The position numbers were made by a program, and so were the translations under genes. Of a stretch of 4,726 bases of DNA, positions 1 to 4,726 are shown in pieces (the first letter of the stretch is position 1; the number at the start of each line of letters is the position of its first letter). The stretch covers positions 1 through 4,726 of IMG/VR virus record IMGVR_UViG_2648501784_000015, one strand, 5' to 3'. Origin of the DNA: a virus (taxonomy: Duplodnaviria > Heunggongvirae > Uroviricota > Caudoviricetes). A model generated the notes under the pieces. It saw only the letters and a program-made list of their open reading frames with translations, was not told where the DNA came from and made no database searches.

Positions 1-297
1 TGGCAGCAGCAGGTGGCGGCTATTGAAGTACAACTGCGCGAGCAACTGGCACCAGCCCGTGACGCCGAAATGGTTGCCGATGTGCGCGTGCTAGGGGCCA
101 TTGGCGTGGTCGAAACCACTCGTCCGGTGAATATGGCGGCGCTGCAAAAATTCTTTGTCGAACAGGGGGTATGGATCCGGCCTTTTGGCAAACTGATTTA
201 CCTGATGCCGCCCTATATTATTCTCCCGCAACAGTTGCAGCGTCTGACCGCAGCGGTTAACCGTGCGGTGCAGGATGAAACATTTTTTTGCCAATAA
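1..297 (+). CDS. bioA: Adenosylmethionine-8-amino-7-oxononanoate aminotransferase (BioA), C-terminal 98 codons; 5' end lies outside the window
   Basis: Frame 1 is open from base 1 ([32 protein letters not shown]...QDETFFCQ) and ends at TAA 295-297. The track start at 13 is an internal GTG, not the real start. The translation matches my recollection of the E. coli BioA C-terminus, and the synteny with ybhB immediately downstream fits. Confidence 0.92.
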
Positions 298-355: not shown

Positions 356-832
356 ATGAAACTCATCAGTAACGATCTGCGCGATGGCGATAAGCTGCCG
401 CATCGTCATGTCTTTAACGGCATGGGTTACGATGGCGATAATATTTCACCGCATCTGGCGTGGGATGATGTTCCTGTGGGAACGAAAAGTTTTGTTGTCA
501 CCTGCTACGACCCGGACGCGCCAACCGGCTCCGGCTGGTGGCACTGGGTAGTTGTTAATTTACCCGCTGATACCCGCGTATTACCGCAAGGGTTTGGCTC
601 TGGTCTGGTAGCTATGCCAGACGGCGTTTTGCAGACGCGTACCGACTTTGGTAAAACCGGGTACGATGGCGCAGCGCCGCCGAAAGGCGAAACCCATCGC
701 TACATTTTTACCGTTCACGCGCTGGATGTAGAACGTATTGATGTCGATGAAGGTGCCAGCGGCGCGATGGTCGGGTTTAACGTTCATTTTCACTCTCTGG
801 CGAGTGCCTCAATTACTGCGATGTTTAGTTAA
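356..832 (+). CDS. ybhB: PEBP-family (phosphatidylethanolamine-binding / kinase-inhibitor-like) protein YbhB
   Basis: 158-aa ORF with ATG at 356 and TAA at 830-832. A Shine-Dalgarno AAGGAGG sits at 345-351. The protein (MKLISNDLRDGDKLPHRHVFNGMGYDGDNISPHLAWDDVP...CYDPDAP...) matches recalled E. coli YbhB and carries the PEBP-type DPDxP and His motifs. Same strand and 58 bp downstream of bioA, as in the known bioA-ybhB arrangement. Confidence 0.94.
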   Translation: MKLISNDLRDGDKLPHRHVFNGMGYDGDNISPHLAWDDVPVGTKSFVVTCYDPDAPTGSGWWHWVVVNLPADTRVLPQGFGSGLVAMPDGVLQTRTDFGKTGYDGAAPPKGETHRYIFTVHALDVERIDVDEGASGAMVGFNVHFHSLASASITAMFS

Positions 833-863: not shown

Positions 864-922
864 TATCACTTAAAGGTATTAAAAACAACTTTTTGTCTTT
901 TTACCTTCCCGTTTCGCTCAAG

Positions 923-937
923 TTAGTATAAAAAAGC
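923..937 (-). other. Lambda-type attachment-site core (O), 15 bp, at the host/prophage junction (attR, POB')
   Basis: TTAGTATAAAAAAGC at 923-937 is the exact reverse complement of the lambda core GCTTTTTTATACTAA (recalled). To the left, CGTTTCGCTCAAG matches the B' half of E. coli attB. To the right the sequence is phage P-arm-like. Confidence 0.88.
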
Positions 938-1080
938 TGAACGAGAAACATAAAATGTTATAAATATCAATATATTACATTTTATTTCGTATAAAAAACA
1001 GACTAGATAATACTGTAAAACACAACATATGCAGTCACTATGAATCAACTACTTAGATGGTATTAGTGACCTGTAACAGA
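938..1080 (-). promoter_or_regulatory. Lambda-like attP P arm (Int arm-type sites P1/P2, with IHF/Xis/Fis site region) retained in attR
   Basis: The reverse complement reads TCTGTTACAGGTCACTAATACCATCTAAGTAGTTGATTCATAGTGACTGCATATG...CGTTCAGC, nearly identical to the lambda P arm as I recall it. Arm-type Int consensus copies sit at about 1032-1042 (CAGTCACTATG) and 1062-1074 (ATTAGTGACCTGT). The central Xis/Fis stretch (about 975-1010) appears to differ from lambda at several positions. Confidence 0.8.
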
Positions 1081-1082
1081 GC

Positions 1083-1123
1083 ATTAGCGCAAGGTGATTT
1101 TTGTCTTCTTGCGCTAATTTTTT
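1083..1123 (+). terminator. Rho-independent terminator hairpin plus T-tract; positionally equivalent to the lambda tI/sib retroregulator
   Basis: ATTAGCGCAAG (1083-1093) pairs perfectly with CTTGCGCTAAT (1107-1117) around a 13-nt loop, followed by TTTTTT at 1118-1123. It sits about 150-190 bp from the core on the P-arm side, where lambda tI/sib lies. Orientation matches transcripts that would come from int through att in the phage. Confidence 0.6.
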
Positions 1124-1434
1124 GTCGTAAAATCGGTAACGTCTGGAAATCATTCAATATTCGCACTATCGGAAGTTCACCAGCCAACCGCAGCACGTTA
1201 TTGCATACAACGTGCTGCGGCATAAAACCAATGATTATTCCTTCCCGCACATGACATACCGCGACTTTATTTATCCCCAGCAGGAAATTTTTCATACAAC
1301 TTCGACCCACCAACATCACAGGTAATTGTTCCGCCTGTGTATTCTCGCGCCAACATCTACCACAATTTGTTTTCATAGGATTGTAGTCACTCTTCTGGTT
1401 GTTTCACATAATAACTTGTATACTTCAGATAGTA

Positions 1435-1464
1435 TTCATAACCTCAAACTATTTAATGTATAAA
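1435..1464 (+). promoter_or_regulatory. Putative sigma70 promoter for the cargo gene (-35 TTCATA about 1435-1440; TG-TATAAA about 1457-1464)
   Basis: AT-rich 115-bp leader upstream of the 1495 start codon. Hexamers chosen by eye, 18-bp spacing, TG immediately upstream of the -10. Not validated and alternatives exist. Confidence 0.25.
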
Positions 1465-1494
1465 TTAGATCTGAAAGTTTAGGAAAGATTTTCT

Positions 1495-2214
1495 ATGTTG
1501 ATCGTTTCTGTACTACGCTGCGGCAAGGATTTTACGCCGAAACATGCACAATGGCTTCATAAACAATTTGGTTCAATGCCCTCAATCTGCTTGACTGATG
1601 CTGGAAGTATTGATGGTGTGAATACTGCACCTTTGTTATTTGATTGGCCTGGTTGGTGGTCAAAAATGGAGTTATTTAACCCAAACCATCCAGTAATCGG
1701 GAATCATGACATTTTATATTTTGACATAGATGTTGTCATTACTGGAAAATTGGATATTTTTACAAAAGCTAAAAATTTCACCATGCTCAGGGAGTTTAAT
1801 CATCATGACCGTGTTAACTCCTCAATTATGATGATTCCCGTTTCTGCAAAGACAAAAATATGGGAGGAATTTACTGCCAATCCTGAACAAATAATGCAAG
1901 AATGCAAAACTGAAGATAAATGGGGTGATCAAGGTTTTATCGGTAGTGTTACTAAGCCAGACTTATGGCAGGACATTATTCCAGATGCAATTAAAAGTTA
2001 TAAATGCGATATAGCAACAAAATCAATGATTGGATACAATCCAGACCTGGCATCAAAATCAGCAACTGGGAAAGTACCTGACAGTGTTTCAGTTGTGTGT
2101 TTTCACGGTAGTCCACGCCCCTGGCGCACTGGTTTTAACTGGGTTCCATCTTTTTCTTTAAAAGATACGCTTTATGGCAAAGTAAAAAATCTCAAATTAA
2201 AGGTTAAAGGTTAA
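1495..2214 (+). CDS. Prophage b-region cargo (moron) protein, 239 aa; putative GT-A fold, GT8/glycogenin-like nucleotide-sugar glycosyltransferase
   Basis: Clean ORF with SD AGGAAA at 1481-1486, 8 nt before the ATG, and TAA at 2212-2214. Markedly AT-rich compared with both flanks. The motif order and spacing resemble GT8 hallmarks as I recall them from glycogenin/LgtC: hydrophobic strand plus DxD (ILYFDIDVVITGKLDIF, D77-D79, nt 1723-1731); NSS about 30 aa later (nt 1816-1824); DQG (aa 145-147, nt 1927-1935); and C-terminal CFHGSPRPW (nt 2104-2124), matching H-x-x-G-x-x-K/R-P-W. No obvious signal peptide or TM segment. The family call is inference; the CDS itself is well supported. Confidence 0.8.
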   Translation: MLIVSVLRCGKDFTPKHAQWLHKQFGSMPSICLTDAGSIDGVNTAPLLFDWPGWWSKMELFNPNHPVIGNHDILYFDIDVVITGKLDIFTKAKNFTMLREFNHHDRVNSSIMMIPVSAKTKIWEEFTANPEQIMQECKTEDKWGDQGFIGSVTKPDLWQDIIPDAIKSYKCDIATKSMIGYNPDLASKSATGKVPDSVSVVCFHGSPRPWRTGFNWVPSFSLKDTLYGKVKNLKLKVKG

Positions 2215-2220
2215 AATCAT

Positions 2221-2243
2221 AACCACTCGCATAGCGGGTGGTT
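2221..2243. terminator. Hairpin between the convergent cargo gene and tfa (10-bp stem with one G.U, 3-4-nt loop); possible bidirectional terminator
   Basis: AACCACTCGC (2221-2230) pairs with GCGGGTGGTT (2234-2243). It lies 7 nt after the cargo gene stop and about 70 nt after the tfa stop. Flanks are only moderately U-rich on either strand. Confidence 0.35.
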
Positions 2244-2313
2244 ATCTGTCTCAGCCACGATACGCCTGAAACTGGCTTTAAGTCAGCAATAATAAAAGGA
2301 GTAAATCCTTCCG

Positions 2314-2883
2314 TTATTGTGGTTGCACAGGCCAAACTGGCTCAAGAATATCAACACGGTTCAGCAATACCCGATACTTCTTCCAGGCTGTCAGCAACGA
2401 TATTTCTTCCTCCGTTGCAATCTCCAGATCTACCGCATCCTGAAGTGGCGAAATATGCTCACTGGCTACCTGCATCAGGCTGTTTTTTGTTTCTTCCGCC
2501 TCCCGGATCCGGAACAGTTTTTCTGCTTCTGCATCTTTCACCCAGGCTGTGCCGTTCCACTTCTGAAACTCCCCTTCCGGCGATAACCAGGTAACATTTT
2601 CCGGTAACGGACCGAGTTCAGAAATAAATAAAGCATCACCGGAAGTTACGTCATATACAGTTTTACCTCGGTGGTCTTCAACAATATTCCAAGATTTATT
2701 CTCACTGTTAAAAACAGCCACAAATCCAGCCTCCACATCTGGTGGTGCTATATCTGTAGTATTAGCTGGTAGACCTGTATACGGTGGGATATATGCGTCA
2801 CTTTCCCCAATAAATTCATTGGTTCCATCAAGTAAATTAAATACGCGGATAGTTTGTGCTTCTGCACTCATTCTGAAAGTCAT
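2314..2883 (-). CDS. tfa: Tail fibre assembly protein (lambda Tfa / T4 gp38-like chaperone)
   Basis: 189-aa ORF ([60 protein letters not shown]...[42 protein letters not shown]...) closely matches lambda Tfa as I recall it. It lies immediately downstream of stf with a TAATG stop/start overlap, and has a GAGG Shine-Dalgarno about 8 nt upstream. Confidence 0.92.
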
Positions 2884-4726
2884 TATGCAAGCCTCACAAT
2901 ATAGTTAAATGCGATGTTTTTGACGGTGTTTTCGGTATTACCAGTAGCATTTACGGTAATGGAATGCCCGTGTGAGCCAATGGCAACAGTGTGTGAATGT
3001 GCACCAATACCAACAGTATGGTTATGTGCTCCAATGTCGACTGTATGTGCATGATTGCCTGATGAACTAGTAGTCGTAGCACCTTTATCACTTCGCGGAA
3101 CACCATAATTTGCACCGCCTGATTGCACGCTCACAGCAAAACCGACGGTATGTGTATGATTGCCTGAAGTATTGGTTGATTTTGTGCCGTGGTTAAACGT
3201 ACTGACTGTCTTCGTGCCGTAATCAAATGAACTGGTCGTTTTCGTCCCTAAATCCGTATTTGACGCACTGGCGCTGTGAGTATGTGATTTAATCCCGTCC
3301 TGTTCCTGTGATAATACAGCACGCCCACTGGCGGGTTTGCCCTTGATTGTCCAGCCGCGCATATCCGGAATAACACCAGAAGGATAGGCTATAGCCAGTT
3401 TCGGATATGCAGATTTGTCAAAAGTCTGCCCCTGCATCAGGGCATAGCCAGACGGAACGGTATCTGATGGCCACGGGATTGGTGCGCCGACTGGATAAAA
3501 CTCTGCAGGAGGATGAGCCGAGGTGTAAAGCTGCGCCCACGGCGACCAGTTTGCGTCGGTCGTATCCCGTCGTGAACGAATAAATGCCGGAGCATGAGCA
3601 CCGCTTGTACCACTCCAGCCGATGAGTAACTCACCTTCGCCAACGGCTGTCATCCCTTTCAGGTGAATGATATTTCCATACGCTGTTGGATATCCGTTGT
3701 TATACACCTCGTATAACTCAAGACCTGCTGCCCCCTGCGTATTGTCTGTCAGCGCGGCTACCCGACCTTTTGAAGCCAGATTAACTGATGATACTGCTGT
3801 TCCACCTGACGGTAGCGCCCCGATCTCTGATGCCGTTGGCTTATTTCTGGAGTTATAGTCCCTTCGCCAACCAGGTGAATAATCTGTTCCGTGATTAATA
3901 TAGGTAAACTGGGCGTTGGTTGTTCCGCCACCGCTGGATGTGGTCGGAGTGGTAATGCGGATCGTCATCGCTGACTTTATCCCCATTACTTCAATGACAG
4001 CTCCGGCGAGATGAATATTACCGCAGCCAGTATCAGTAATGATTTTATTATTGCCATAAGACCAGGAACCCTTGCACATCCAGTATGGATGGTTAAATGC
4101 TCCCTGAGAATCCAGCCACTCGATAAACTGTGCAGTCGTCCAGTTTCCTGTTGTTGTGCTTACTGACCCACCGAAGGCACGGCAGGCACCAATATTTTTC
4201 GTAAAGGTGTCATTGCCAGGGATATCCGCACCGTTCTGATCTTTCTGCAGACGTTTCTCAGCATTGTCATTGGCTGCTTTTACTGCCTTCGGCGTTGCCG
4301 CCAGCGTTTCAGATGTGCTGTTGGTCGCACTGCTGAGCTGTACTATCCCCTTTTTCGTCGTGCTCGCATCCTCAAGCGCCACGGCGGATGCAATATCCTC
4401 TGCCCGTTTTGCAGCTGTCTCGGCGCGCGTTGCCGCGGATTCAGCCGCATTTTTGCTCTGAGCTGCCTCCGTCGCACTTCCTGCCGTCTCTGTCGCCTTC
4501 GTGGATGCCGTTGACGCACTCTCTGCCGCCGCTGACGCCTGTCTGGTCGCCTCATCTTTTGAATCAGACGCAGATGATGCCGATGATGCCGCCGAACTGG
4601 CTGATGATGCGGCTGCCGTCTTTGAGGATTCTGCGCTGGTTTCCGACGCTTTCGCGTTCGTTTCGGATGTCTTCGCTGCGGATGCAGACCTCGCTGCTGC
4701 GCTGGCCTGTTCAGCGGCTTCGCCAG
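2883..4726 (-). CDS. stf: Side tail fibre protein (lambda Stf / T4 gp37-like), C-terminal 613 codons; 5' end lies outside the window
   Basis: The minus-strand frame is open from the window edge (4726) to TAA at 2885-2883. The track start at 4382 is an internal GTG (my manual translation upstream gives ...[29 protein letters not shown]... with no stop). It contains the conserved [24 protein letters not shown] motif, an Ala/Ser/Thr-rich N-proximal region, and C-terminal His-x-His repeats like the T4 gp37 / lambda Stf distal tip. Confidence 0.92.
2958..3056 (-). repeat. Tandem in-frame 27-nt (9-aa) coding repeats encoding the G-A/S-H-x-H-T/S-V-x-I units of the tail-fibre tip
   Basis: The protein reads [36 protein letters not shown]. 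The corresponding DNA shows repeated (A)TGTGCACCAAT / ATGTGCTCCAAT-like units. Further HxH copies lie upstream, at about 3150-3160 and 3280-3290. Confidence 0.7.

Follow-up and report, generated by a model that had tools for sequence, protein, structure and literature searches.

In lambda, the interval between the tail fibre assembly gene and the attachment site measures 4,971 bp (22558-27528) and holds ea47, ea31 and ea59; in the viral DNA analysed here it measures about 1.2 kb, as a sequence-only reading of the same DNA had rightly noted. The question is how this interval was put together, and what its cargo could do for a lysogen. The window, by which we mean the whole stretch of 4,726 nucleotides, is the attR (right) end of a lambdoid prophage at the classical E. 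coli lambda att site, after bioA–ybhB. Its b region is a layered mosaic around one moron, and this moron probably acts in lysogenic conversion of the LPS core. The features of the window are the following.

1..297, plus strand: 3' end of bioA, an ORF of the host chromosome; the homologous position is annotated bioA in E. coli GDSC2227PM and ATCC 8739
356..832, plus strand: ybhB, host gene on the bio side of the lambda attachment site (Pfam PBP, E = 1.4e-41; annotated ybhB or kinase inhibitor in GDSC2227PM and ATCC 8739)
919..1075, no strand assigned: attR, with the 15-bp core at 923-937 (reverse complement of GCTTTTTTATACTAA) and the attP P arm; ungapped match to lambda
1076..1126, plus strand: sib/tI hairpin with T-run; inverted repeat, arms 1076-1093 and 1108-1125
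1127..1241, no strand assigned: conserved junction block with a perfect palindrome of 12-bp arms; matches in lambda, HK97, HK106 and phi80
1267..1326, minus strand: remnant of a Pin/Gin/Cin-family DNA invertase, last 19 codons and stop; blastn and tblastn
1360..1494, plus strand: putative promoter/leader region of the glycosyltransferase gene, 28% GC, co-inherited with the gene
1495..2214, plus strand: cargo gene, predicted 239-aa soluble GT8-like glycosyltransferase of PHROG 1962; profile, motif and fold matches
2219..2245, no strand assigned: hairpin between the convergent glycosyltransferase and tfa genes; inverted repeat, with a terminator-like site on the minus strand, then TTATGATTTT
2314..2883, minus strand: tfa, tail fibre assembly (Caudo_TAP, E = 1.1e-37; 80% amino acid identity to lambda Tfa)
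2883..4726, minus strand: C-terminal part of stf, side tail fibre (Pfam Phage_fiber_2 and Collar); frame open through 4726

Read in the direction of late transcription, the layout is stf, tfa, a likely hairpin terminator and the opposite-strand glycosyltransferase gene with its AT-rich putative promoter region, followed by the dead 3' end of a Pin-type invertase, the conserved hairpin block, sib/tI and attP. Three further ORFs were treated as spurious, because they span attP, sib, the hairpin block or the tfa end: the minus-strand ORFs 1053-1376 and 923-1048, which matched no family in Pfam or PHROG, and the small ORF 2204-2335, without a PHROG match. In the annotation of the lambdoid phage Chlobot all three are hypothetical proteins.

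Joints of the mosaic against lambda and its relatives

The breakpoints were mapped from matches to lambda, HK97, Chlobot and the P2-like prophage of E. coli AH19B041. From the core through the P arm into tI the window follows lambda 27742-27529 without gaps and at 94.9% identity, over a stretch that spans lambda's annotated core (27724-27738) and the Int arm sites. This much of the earlier reading holds, but not the end of the similarity at 1136: in a base-by-base comparison the collinear identity stops at 1126, where the T-run of tI has its final base (BLAST drifts to 1132). The sib/tI hairpin has a folding energy of -24.3 kcal/mol (z = -4.8), and the HK97 bases homologous to 1076..1126 carry the annotation of the sib retroregulation site. 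Nor does the likeness to lambda cease after about 1136. In fact, 1127-1221 matches lambda 24256-24161, between ea47 and ea31, at 88.5%, and 1186-1241 matches lambda 22608-22551, directly after the tfa stop, at 82.8%; lambda holds this hairpin block twice, flanking ea47, and about 115 bp of the supposed non-lambda island are lambda b-region sequence. On the other side the similarity had been expected to resume at 2314, but the nucleotide match to lambda tfa begins at 2349, and the right-hand joint lies inside tfa. Instead of a single island with sharp edges at 1137 and 2313 we found at least four joints, all elsewhere: 1126/1127, about 1241/1242, about 1327-1360 and 2348/2349. The DNA without a lambda counterpart is 1242-2348, which ends within tfa, 11 codons before its stop, and these 1,107 bp stand in place of the last 43 bp of a lambda-type tfa (lambda 22508-22550).

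No match to lambda 22609-24160 or 24257-27528, the DNA of ea47, ea31 and ea59, was found in the window. The ea31-ea59 segment (3.27 kb) is missing, with the joint exactly 3' of the tI T-run, and ea47 (1.55 kb) is missing as well, as if the two hairpin-block copies of lambda had recombined. When direct repeats flanking the island were sought as a sign of transposition or site-specific insertion, only short ones at chance level were seen. The proposed exchange point between tfa and attP is nevertheless real, with ea47, ea31 and ea59 gone and a small accessory cargo of one true gene (1495-2214, plus strand) in their stead, and the slot does swap accessory functions, having none in HK97 and an acetyltransferase fragment with IS1 in E. 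coli ATCC 8739.

The hairpin block was also found in HK97, which is collinear with the window through 1220, in HK106 and in phi80, and its part from 1137 to about 1220 occurs in about 400 complete E. coli genomes. The palindrome, with arms at 1188-1199 and 1209-1220, folds with -21.5 and -26.4 kcal/mol on the two strands (z about -5; none of 200 shuffles as stable), and in the ATCC 8739 copy the stem is kept by paired changes, CCGCAGC>CCGTGGC with GCTGCGG>GCCACGG. A PGAP pseudogene 'capsid/nucleocapsid protein', at about 1125-1223 in the annotations of GDSC2227PM and ATCC 8739, coincides with this block and is regarded by us as an annotation artefact.

Ahead of the cargo gene, a leader of 358 bp (1137-1494) with a perfect palindrome had been described; both the length and the palindrome hold, but it is not featureless, for it contains the 3' remnant of a Pin invertase, running from 1326 to 1267. 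The leader is a composite of hairpin block, the last 19 invertase codons and a 135-bp presumptive promoter region. The remnant is 82.5% identical to pinE of e14 in K-12 genomes (blastn), and in tblastn ITCDVGGSKLYEKFPAGDK with its stop agrees with PinE IIYDVGVSTLYKRFPAGDK with its stop at 14 of 20 positions (E = 7e-5). In ATCC 8739 a longer pin remnant lies at the same place, after the same sib and hairpin block, and is followed by the acetyltransferase fragment and IS1.

The AT-rich part of the leader, 1360..1494, may serve as the promoter of the cargo gene. It has a conserved block (1394-1425) with the -10-like hexamers CATAAT (1407-1412) and TATACT (1419-1424), and a ribosome-binding site, AGGAAAG, follows at 1481-1487. 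A promoter-like site at 1384-1412 is weak (9 of 12 consensus positions), and the scanned region holds 8 such sites against 5.4 +/- 2.6 in shuffled sequence, that is, no enrichment; an Rfam scan of the leader gave nothing credible. Window 1360-2217, with the 135 bp upstream of the gene included, is 83.9% identical to the P2-like prophage of AH19B041. Beyond the gene, the hairpin at 2219..2245 (-17.2 and -13.9 kcal/mol, z about -5) is likely a two-way terminator; the AH19B041 copy does not have it, 2218-2289 being absent there.

Alignment to the relatives put the breakpoints at positions other than those foreseen, and Chlobot (PP925838.1), deposited as a complete phage genome from an environmental sample, is continuously homologous to the window over the whole interval (919-3529, 98.8%). 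The exchanged DNA is not new, as the same region is already present in this sequenced phage. The gene is carried by 4 of 5426 complete E. coli genomes; the prophage that holds it in GDSC2227PM is badly degraded, the region is broken by IS1 in strain SW070917, and relics lie all around it in the window (the pin remnant, the vestigial tfa end, the duplicated hairpin blocks). One might therefore see in it inert passenger DNA of a decaying junction, with no selected function in the phage. We consider this very improbable: the ORF is intact in the window, Chlobot and AH19B041, its catalytic-type residues are invariant in 51 homologues down to 37% identity, and a phage of another type has kept the promoter-proximal block and the ribosome-binding site at 84% DNA identity.

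The cargo gene and its predicted product

The base composition of the cargo gene (GC 37.6%, GC3 30.8%) differs from that of tfa (44.6% and 37.9%) and stf (51.7% and 44.6%). Its protein matches PHROG 1962, a phage 'glycosyltransferase' family of the moron/auxiliary category, with E = 4e-76 (residues 1-225 against positions 1-226 of the 230 of the profile). No match was obtained in Pfam (E <= 0.1), NCBIfam or PADLOC, and it is therefore neither a named enzyme nor a catalogued defence gene. Database entries for members of the family are named 'hypothetical protein', or 'glycosyltransferase' from PHROG only. Among 120 homologues the precomputed Pfam families were none, except for PF01973 in fusions.

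Since the Pfam GT8 model (PF01501) is not matched either, we label the protein GT8-like and do not file it as a GT8 member. The matches of sequence and fold assign it to a predicted distant relationship with GT8. The family profile finds the GT8 structures 6mw5 (E = 4.9e-6) and glycogenin (E = 6.5e-5), with D77 and D79 aligned to the DxD of glycogenin and of the Skp1 galactosyltransferase. The residues invariant in the 51 homologues are D77xD79, G144-D145-Q146 and F203-H204-G205-x-P207-x-P209. At the C-terminal family motif, C202-F-H204-G-x-P-R-P-W, the HMMER alignment pairs the histidine of glycogenin with C202 and not with H204, the motif being shifted with respect to HxxGxxKPW of GT8. A GT-A fold is predicted with high confidence: the AlphaFold model has a pLDDT of 96, and the top Foldseek matches are all GT8 structures, LgtC included, at probability 1.0, TM-scores of about 0.5-0.57 and 10-17% identity. 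The product is predicted to be a cytoplasmic, metal-dependent (DxD) GT-A enzyme. On inspection its sequence has no hydrophobic stretch of membrane-spanning type, and the predicted C-terminal helix 222-238 (LKDTLYGKVKNLKLKVKG) is basic and Lys-rich; comparable helices serve membrane association in LgtC.

The neighbours of the gene also point to a shared history with the tail fibre. In its last 11 codons (2314-2348) tfa has a variant that is not of the lambda type, and it shares this variant with the P2-like prophage that has the same glycosyltransferase. The last 205 residues of Stf are 95% identical to the fibre of the AH19B041 myovirus, 93% to that of Chlobot and 62% to lambda orf-314, and the Tfa of AH19B041 is 87% identical to that of the window. 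Because the tfa-side joint falls within the coding sequence, the fibre-assembly tip moves along with the cassette; the glycosyltransferase cassette has travelled between a siphovirus and a P2-like myovirus in company with the tip of tfa and the end of stf that binds the receptor. On the other hand, the adjacency to the fibre genes could reflect just a tolerated insertion slot at the end of the late operon.

Possible acceptors of the transferred sugar

Outside prophages and small genomic islands, the closest relatives of the gene are LPS-core cluster genes next to waaL. A Pectobacterium homologue, 49% identical, is found inside the waa cluster (GT9, WaaG-like GT4, Kdo kinase, sulfatase, GT8, WaaZ_KDO_III, homologue, GT25), and homologues of 38-42% identity in Klebsiella spp., Raoultella, Erwinia, Rosenbergiella and Morganella directly adjoin the gene for the O-antigen ligase; most of them also have a WaaZ-like gene close by, and those of Klebsiella and Raoultella a heptosyltransferase gene; the order in Morganella is dfp-radC-homologue-waaL-waaZ-like-mutM. 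The surroundings of about 24 of 80 species-level loci include a WaaZ/MptE-like gene, and fusions of glycosyltransferase and WaaZ/MptE-like domains exist. The gene of the window itself lies in a prophage and not in a chromosomal core-biosynthesis cluster, and the waa-cluster homologues, at 38-49% identity, support by analogy the idea that its enzyme may work like an LPS core glycosyltransferase, not that it belongs among them.

For the expression in lysogens, the acceptor and the phenotype we infer the following sequence of events. The gene would be expressed in the lysogen from its own promoter, the enzyme would associate with the inner membrane via its Lys-rich C-terminal helix and transfer a sugar, either to the LPS core or to some lipid-linked glycan of the surface that is closely related to it, and superinfecting phages would then meet an altered surface, which amounts to lysogenic conversion with masking of the receptor. 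Two observations speak against the LPS core as the acceptor. The waa-cluster homologues are only 38-49% identical and mostly stand beside a WaaZ-like partner, whereas the phage has no such partner, and the roughly 19 of 80 loci located in head-module operons fit virion glycosylation better than LPS modification.

These head-operon homologues (32-39% identity) lie between the major capsid gene and the head-tail connector genes, co-oriented with them and sometimes accompanied by a GT2, radical-SAM or methyltransferase gene. They raise the question of whether the enzyme glycosylates the virion proteins of the phage (capsid, tail or the adjacent side tail fibre) rather than the host envelope, as does the finding that the copies in enterobacterial prophages are always next to fibre and tfa genes: Caudo_TAP and fibre genes flank it in the window, Chlobot, AH19B041, Citrobacter, K. 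aerogenes, E. albertii, contig ERR6046159 and Salmonella. Virion glycosylation in mycobacteriophages is cited in two papers (PMC11256854, PMC10955285), and in these phages glycosyltransferases whose genes lie beside structural ones are reported to act in this way. For the window, however, we hold this to be quite unlikely, as the gene is opposite to the late operon, with an AT-rich upstream region of its own and a hairpin in between, unlike the arrangement expected of a late, virion-directed gene; its nearest relatives outside prophages and islands are those beside waaL; and lambda and HK97 have no such gene, yet their virions, with related fibres, are functional.

An acceptor other than the LPS core, namely another host surface glycan (O-antigen repeat unit, enterobacterial common antigen, capsule or colanic acid) or a host protein, would still mean lysogenic conversion. 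It is suggested by a homologue 59% identical, paired with a hexapeptide acetyltransferase in a two-gene island next to smpB, by the acetyltransferase fragment in the same prophage slot of ATCC 8739, by an E. coli homologue about 1.8 kb from an HMW1C-like protein glycosyltransferase, and by the protein-directed GT8 enzymes, glycogenin and Skp1 galactosyltransferase, among the best structural matches. Nonetheless we judge it unlikely: for the 31 loci that are closest among the 80, Pfam counts of the neighbouring proteins gave 8 O-antigen ligases (Wzy_C) and 11 MptE/WaaZ-like proteins, and about 11 loci adjoin waaL or another waa gene in a tblastn search whose marker proteins were of three kinds only, waa, phage head and tail fibre, with none for O-antigen (wzx/wzy) or capsule loci.

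Two other ideas were dropped. DNA glucosylation does not suit a lambdoid phage in which no genes of a hydroxymethylcytosine pathway are in view, nor homologues that lie among LPS or structural genes; and a single soluble gene, with no Pfam GtrA or GT2 match, does not make a gtr-type module. A literature search brought up nothing relevant on a characterised prophage core-modifying GT8-like enzyme or on phage Chlobot, and a paper on A. baumannii KdoT/GnaT had no link to this glycosyltransferase family.

Returning to the LPS core, a wider proposal, speculative and rather doubtful as a whole, is that PHROG 1962 comprises Pfam-less LPS-core glycosyltransferases, normally beside WaaZ-like Kdo transferases and WaaL, which enterobacterial phages captured into a three-gene host-range cassette (stf tip, Tfa chaperone, receptor-masking glycosyltransferase) that moves as a unit between siphoviruses and myoviruses. 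If this were true, a new receptor specificity and the matching self-exclusion would be gained in a single recombination.

Comparison with known systems

The gtrABC and serotype-converting genes of prophages (P22, SfV, SfX, epsilon15) resemble the present case in a sugar-modifying function near the attachment site and a presumed change of the LPS that other phages meet, but the window lacks the GtrA flippase, the GtrB bactoprenol transferase and a membrane-embedded, polytopic serotype-specific transferase; as a single, soluble enzyme predicted to be cytoplasmic, the product would have to act before export, at the cytoplasmic face. The mycobacteriophage virion glycosyltransferases are comparable in that distant family members take the equivalent place, after the capsid gene in structural operons, but the window gene runs opposite to the late genes and its nearest relatives outside prophages and small islands are LPS-core genes. 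The retaining enzymes of GT8 (LgtC of Neisseria, glycogenin, Skp1 alpha-galactosyltransferase, LPS core enzymes of the WaaJ/WaaO type) are alike in the predicted GT-A fold, the DxD and profile E-values of 5e-6 to 1e-4; a C-terminal motif of ...HG.P(K/R)PW type also recurs, but in the window protein, which is shorter, at 239 aa, the conserved histidine is displaced by two positions with respect to glycogenin. For hundreds of 'hypothetical proteins' an annotation lead comes from this glycosyltransferase family, which is widespread, has no model in Pfam or NCBIfam and can be tied to LPS-core loci next to waaL and waaZ-like genes.

As for lambda biology, the locus is textbook modular exchange, an ordinary cargo swap with no new principle. 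The cargo has the same position as the lambda b region and the tfa-attP interval of HK97, beside attP where the late operon ends, but it is a glycosyltransferase gene where lambda has ea47, ea31 and ea59, and where in HK97 tfa is followed by the hairpin block, sib and attP with no gene in between. It resembles the lambdoid morons in the sense of Juhala and Hendrix, being an extra gene between genes or sites adjacent in relatives, with a base composition unlike that of the flanking genes, an upstream region of its own and a hairpin beside it; the difference is that the tfa-side joint lies inside the tfa coding sequence. At base level the breakpoints, at the terminator T-run, at the repeated hairpin block that flanks ea47 in lambda and at the tfa tip, are examples of short conserved recombination sequences.

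P2 holds Z/fun in the slot after its tail-fibre assembly gene G, and e14, with the order stf-tfa-pinE-mcrA, has pinE and then mcrA after its fibre genes. In both, as in the window, accessory or exclusion genes come directly after the fibre and tfa genes, and the window has kept the 3' remnant of pin; it differs in its cargo and in having neither a functional invertase nor an invertible segment. The P2-like prophage of AH19B041 has an 84%-identical copy of the cassette after tfa, and the co-inheritance of an enzyme gene with the fibre tip and tfa across morphotypes suggests a link between the recognition and the modification of the receptor.

The attachment site and the joints of the b region

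The anatomy of the region, in which we place high confidence as mapped, is as follows (window positions):

1-832, host DNA: 3' end of bioA and gene ybhB
923-937, lambda core, 15 bp
1076-1093 and 1108-1125, arms of the sib/tI hairpin that follows the P arm, with a T-run up to 1126
1326-1267, minus strand, invertase remnant encoding ITCDVGGSKLYEKFPAGDK-stop, the last 19 codons of a Pin/Gin/Cin-type gene
1495-2214, plus strand, glycosyltransferase gene, 239 aa, with RBS AGGAAAG 7 nt upstream
2314-2883, minus strand, tfa (Caudo_TAP, E = 1e-37)
up to the window end, minus strand, C-terminal part of the side tail fibre gene, frame still open at the last base

Phage sequence starts at 919, and the stretch with core, P arm and sib/tI aligned ungapped to lambda 27742-27529 at 94.9%; the HK97 annotation carries the label sib on the homologous bases. 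Since host bioA and ybhB are followed by phage core, P arm and sib, and then by tfa and the fibre gene, what the window shows, from the bio side, is the attR end of a prophage of lambdoid type inserted at lambda's classical site.

The sequence-only reading had proposed a non-lambda island with two edges, at 1137-2313. A foreign cargo does occupy the b-region slot, and the interval is short, ~1.2 kb against 4,971 bp with ea47, ea31 and ea59 in lambda, measured from tfa to the start of the P-arm-side homology; the 358-bp stretch ahead of a single gene is also present, with a perfect palindrome (12-bp arms, 1188-1199 and 1209-1220). The edges, on the other hand, had to be redrawn. Lambda similarity had been extended to 1136, but in a base-by-base comparison collinear identity went no further than 1126, where the tI T-run ends (the BLAST alignment drifts past it, to 1132). 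Similarity was also thought to cease after the P arm and tI, but 1127-1221 matches lambda 24256-24161, in the gap between ea47 and ea31, at 88.5%, and 1186-1241 matches lambda 22608-22551, the bases immediately 3' of the tfa stop, at 82.8%, including an apparent vestigial '...Glu-stop'. Finally, it was expected back at the tfa stop, 2314, whereas the lambda-tfa DNA match starts at 2349; in the last 11 codons of Tfa the window type differs, after ...NRVD, from that of lambda, where ...NRVD is followed by TSTAPDIEWPAVPVME.

Relative to lambda, ea31-ea59 (24257-27528, 3.27 kb) is absent, with the joint precisely 3' of the tI T-run, ea47 (22609-24160, 1.55 kb) is absent as well, and lambda 22508-22550 is replaced by 1,107 bp (1242-2348). 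As these 1,107 bp hold both a pin remnant and a segment shared with a P2-like prophage, the interval comprises at least four joints and not two. HK97 is collinear with the window over 919-1220. Phage Chlobot (PP925838.1) matches at 98.8% over 919-3529, its gene being labelled 'glycosyltransferase', and the region recurs in the same setting in 4 of 5,426 complete E. coli genomes; IS1 interrupts it in one of these, and in another the prophage is badly decayed. The phenomenon is well known, and an annotated phage genome has already made the sequence public; novelty is confined to the exact map of the breakpoints, the relic of pin and the connection between an unnamed enzyme family and LPS-core loci.

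The hairpin block, the invertase relic and the fibre genes

In lambda the hairpin block (1127-1241 in the window) is found twice, flanking ea47, with copy A 3' of tfa and copy B 3' of ea47 (22551-22608 and 24161-24256, respectively; 3552-3609 and 5162-5257 in the lambda locus L002). The lone block of the window is flanked by B-type sequence on the left and by A-type sequence on the right, as though lambda-type copies A and B had recombined, deleting ea47; a single block is present also in HK97, HK106 and phi80. The palindrome-bearing stretch folds far better than shuffles (z ~ -5, 0/200 shuffles as good), and the part from 1137 to ~1220 was found in ~400 of the complete E. coli genomes. In E. 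coli ATCC 8739 the stem is kept by paired substitutions (CCGCAGC>CCGTGGC with GCTGCGG>GCCACGG), so the hairpin itself appears to be under selection. By its appearance the block may be a joint at which recombination recurs or a terminator; an RNA-stabilising element is another candidate role for the hairpin. In RefSeq this non-coding block coincides exactly with a pseudogene fragment named 'capsid protein' or 'nucleocapsid protein' (3286-3384 in the related locus L004, 3286-3387 in L023 of ATCC 8739; window ~1125-1223), probably an annotation artefact spread from a misnamed protein record.

The invertase remnant is identical to PinE of the K-12 element e14 at 14/20 positions including the stop (tblastn E = 7e-5; blastn 82.5%), and e14 has the intact order fibre, tfa, pinE, mcrA. 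The relic implies that an ancestor once carried an invertase 3' of tfa, as in e14, and by analogy probably also an invertible fibre segment. In ATCC 8739 the same att site is again followed by sib, the hairpin block and a pin relic, the last being longer than in the window; beyond these the cargo differs (L023 3384-4452), consisting of a hexapeptide ('serine') acetyltransferase gene, truncated, and IS1.

The middle of stf, 3530-4218, has no DNA match to Chlobot, and both flanks match at 91-99%, from which the side tail fibre gene is judged to be mosaic too. Its C-terminal part has repeated HxH motifs, as in lambda orf-314, and the tip beside the glycosyltransferase gene belongs to the His-rich type of lambda Stf, a type that also resembles the T4 gp37 tip. 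Within tfa, 2342-2540 (minus strand) matches Rfam RF02111 'IS009' at full length (205 bits, gathering score 117), with the 3' end, 2342, at most 7 nt from the 2348/2349 switch from lambda-type tfa to the variant tip; this sRNA-candidate family may be merely a conserved piece of prophage tfa genes.

A cassette moving between phages

An 83.9% identical copy of 1360-2217, promoter region and gene, is carried by E. coli AH19B041 in a P2-like myovirus prophage, where it is likewise convergent with a tfa gene; the 3' end of that tfa is 77% identical to window 2290-2420, and the hairpin segment 2218-2289 is missing. Given that the last 205 aa of the fibre are 95% identical between the two prophages and Tfa 87%, fibre tip, chaperone and enzyme gene have moved as one block. 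In P2 the sheath, tube, tape-measure and U genes are co-directional with V-W-J-I-H-G (baseplate, fibre); in AH19B041 (L005 236-12826) the former converge on the latter, and the glycosyltransferase gene is placed at that convergence point.

Further prophage copies, at 50-77% identity, directly adjoin tail-fibre and Caudo_TAP genes in both orientations, in Citrobacter, K. aerogenes, E. albertii, contig ERR6046159 and Salmonella, in myoviruses plus this siphovirus. A possible reason is that the enzyme masks the receptor used by this fibre or by competitors' fibres; equally, the end of the late operon could merely tolerate insertions. Salmonella enterica strain s1 has two copies (73% and 75% identity to the gene in the window), one by tail-fibre and tfa genes and the other next to flhDC.

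To survey the contexts, one genome per species was taken, and marker proteins searched by tblastn, together with counts of Pfam families among the neighbours, served to sort the resulting 80 loci. About 11/80 adjoin waaL or other waa genes (Klebsiella spp., Raoultella, Erwinia, Rosenbergiella, Morganella, Pectobacterium), ~24 have a WaaZ/MptE-like neighbour, ~19 lie in phage head modules and one has TAP and fibre neighbours. The order in Morganella is dfp-radC-[gene]-waaL-waaZ-like-mutM; the Pectobacterium homologue (49%) lies, within a waa cluster of the chromosome, between WaaZ_KDO_III and GT25 genes, with GT9, WaaG-like GT4, Kdo-kinase, sulfatase and GT8 genes upstream. Distant homologues (32-39%) are within prophage head-to-tail structural operons. 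Glycosylation of the virion by the enzyme would fit the homologues in head modules, but it is weakened by the opposite orientation of the gene here and by the relatives in waa clusters.

In large phage contigs (L016-L018 6582-8702) MptE-like and Nucleotid_trans genes precede the family member, and fusions of 400-700 aa join an MptE-like domain to a glycosyltransferase domain (proteins P0094 and P0096; BFVD A0A6J5PVH5), a partnership that parallels the WaaZ-like neighbour in chromosomal LPS clusters. In an unrelated island adjacent to smpB (L105 4832-6116), a glycosyltransferase homologue is followed by a hexapeptide acetyltransferase; with the acetyltransferase in the ATCC 8739 slot, this suggests that the two may form a cassette.

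The enzyme and its proposed acceptor

The gene has a GC of 37.6% and a GC3 of 30.8%, below tfa and stf, and falls in PHROG 1962 ('glycosyltransferase', moron category; E = 4e-76); the 239-aa protein found no match among Pfam, NCBIfam and PADLOC models. The N-terminus MLIVSVLR is kept in homologues, and D77-x-D79, G144-D145-Q146, S168, K170 and F203-H204-G205-x-P207-x-P209 are invariant across 51 of them, down to 37% identity. This conservation makes it unlikely that the gene is inert passenger DNA. Among solved GT8 enzymes the family profile matched Skp1 alpha-galactosyltransferase (E = 4.9e-6) and glycogenin (E = 6.5e-5). With the AlphaFold model, which is confident (pLDDT 96, pTM 0.92), the top Foldseek matches were only GT8-type structures, including the Neisseria LOS galactosyltransferase LgtC, at a modest TM of 0.5-0.57; in the viral structure library the best were phage 'GT family 8' proteins and MptE-like-domain fusions (TM 0.65-0.73). 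No membrane-spanning segment was seen in the protein, and the final helix of the predicted structure, 222-238 (LKDTLYGKVKNLKLKVKG), has a strongly basic character. On these grounds we call it a putative soluble GT8-like enzyme of the GT-A type with intact catalytic-type residues, probably associated peripherally with the membrane. It was not filed in GT8, because the curated model gave no match and the conserved His is displaced.

The b region is thus mosaic and holds a self-contained cassette, moving between phages, for a GT-A enzyme with intact catalytic-type residues. The gene would be transcribed from its own promoter, with candidate -10 elements at 1407-1412 and 1419-1424 in the block conserved in the P2-like copy, and expressed independently of the late operon, from which hairpin 2219-2245 separates it. 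Working on the cytoplasmic side of the inner membrane, the enzyme would then attach a sugar to the LPS core, and the lysogen would display an altered core. We give the LPS core an even chance, or slightly less, of being the acceptor; a rival is another host glycan or a host protein, in line with the one island in which the gene is paired with an acetyltransferase gene and with the presence, among the top structural matches, of GT8 enzymes that act on proteins.

The region would work like a lambda b-region moron and like the accessory slots 3' of the fibre genes in P2 and e14, and its enzyme is similar to GT8 LPS/LOS transferases. Unlike serotype conversion of the gtrABC type, it relies on a single soluble enzyme.
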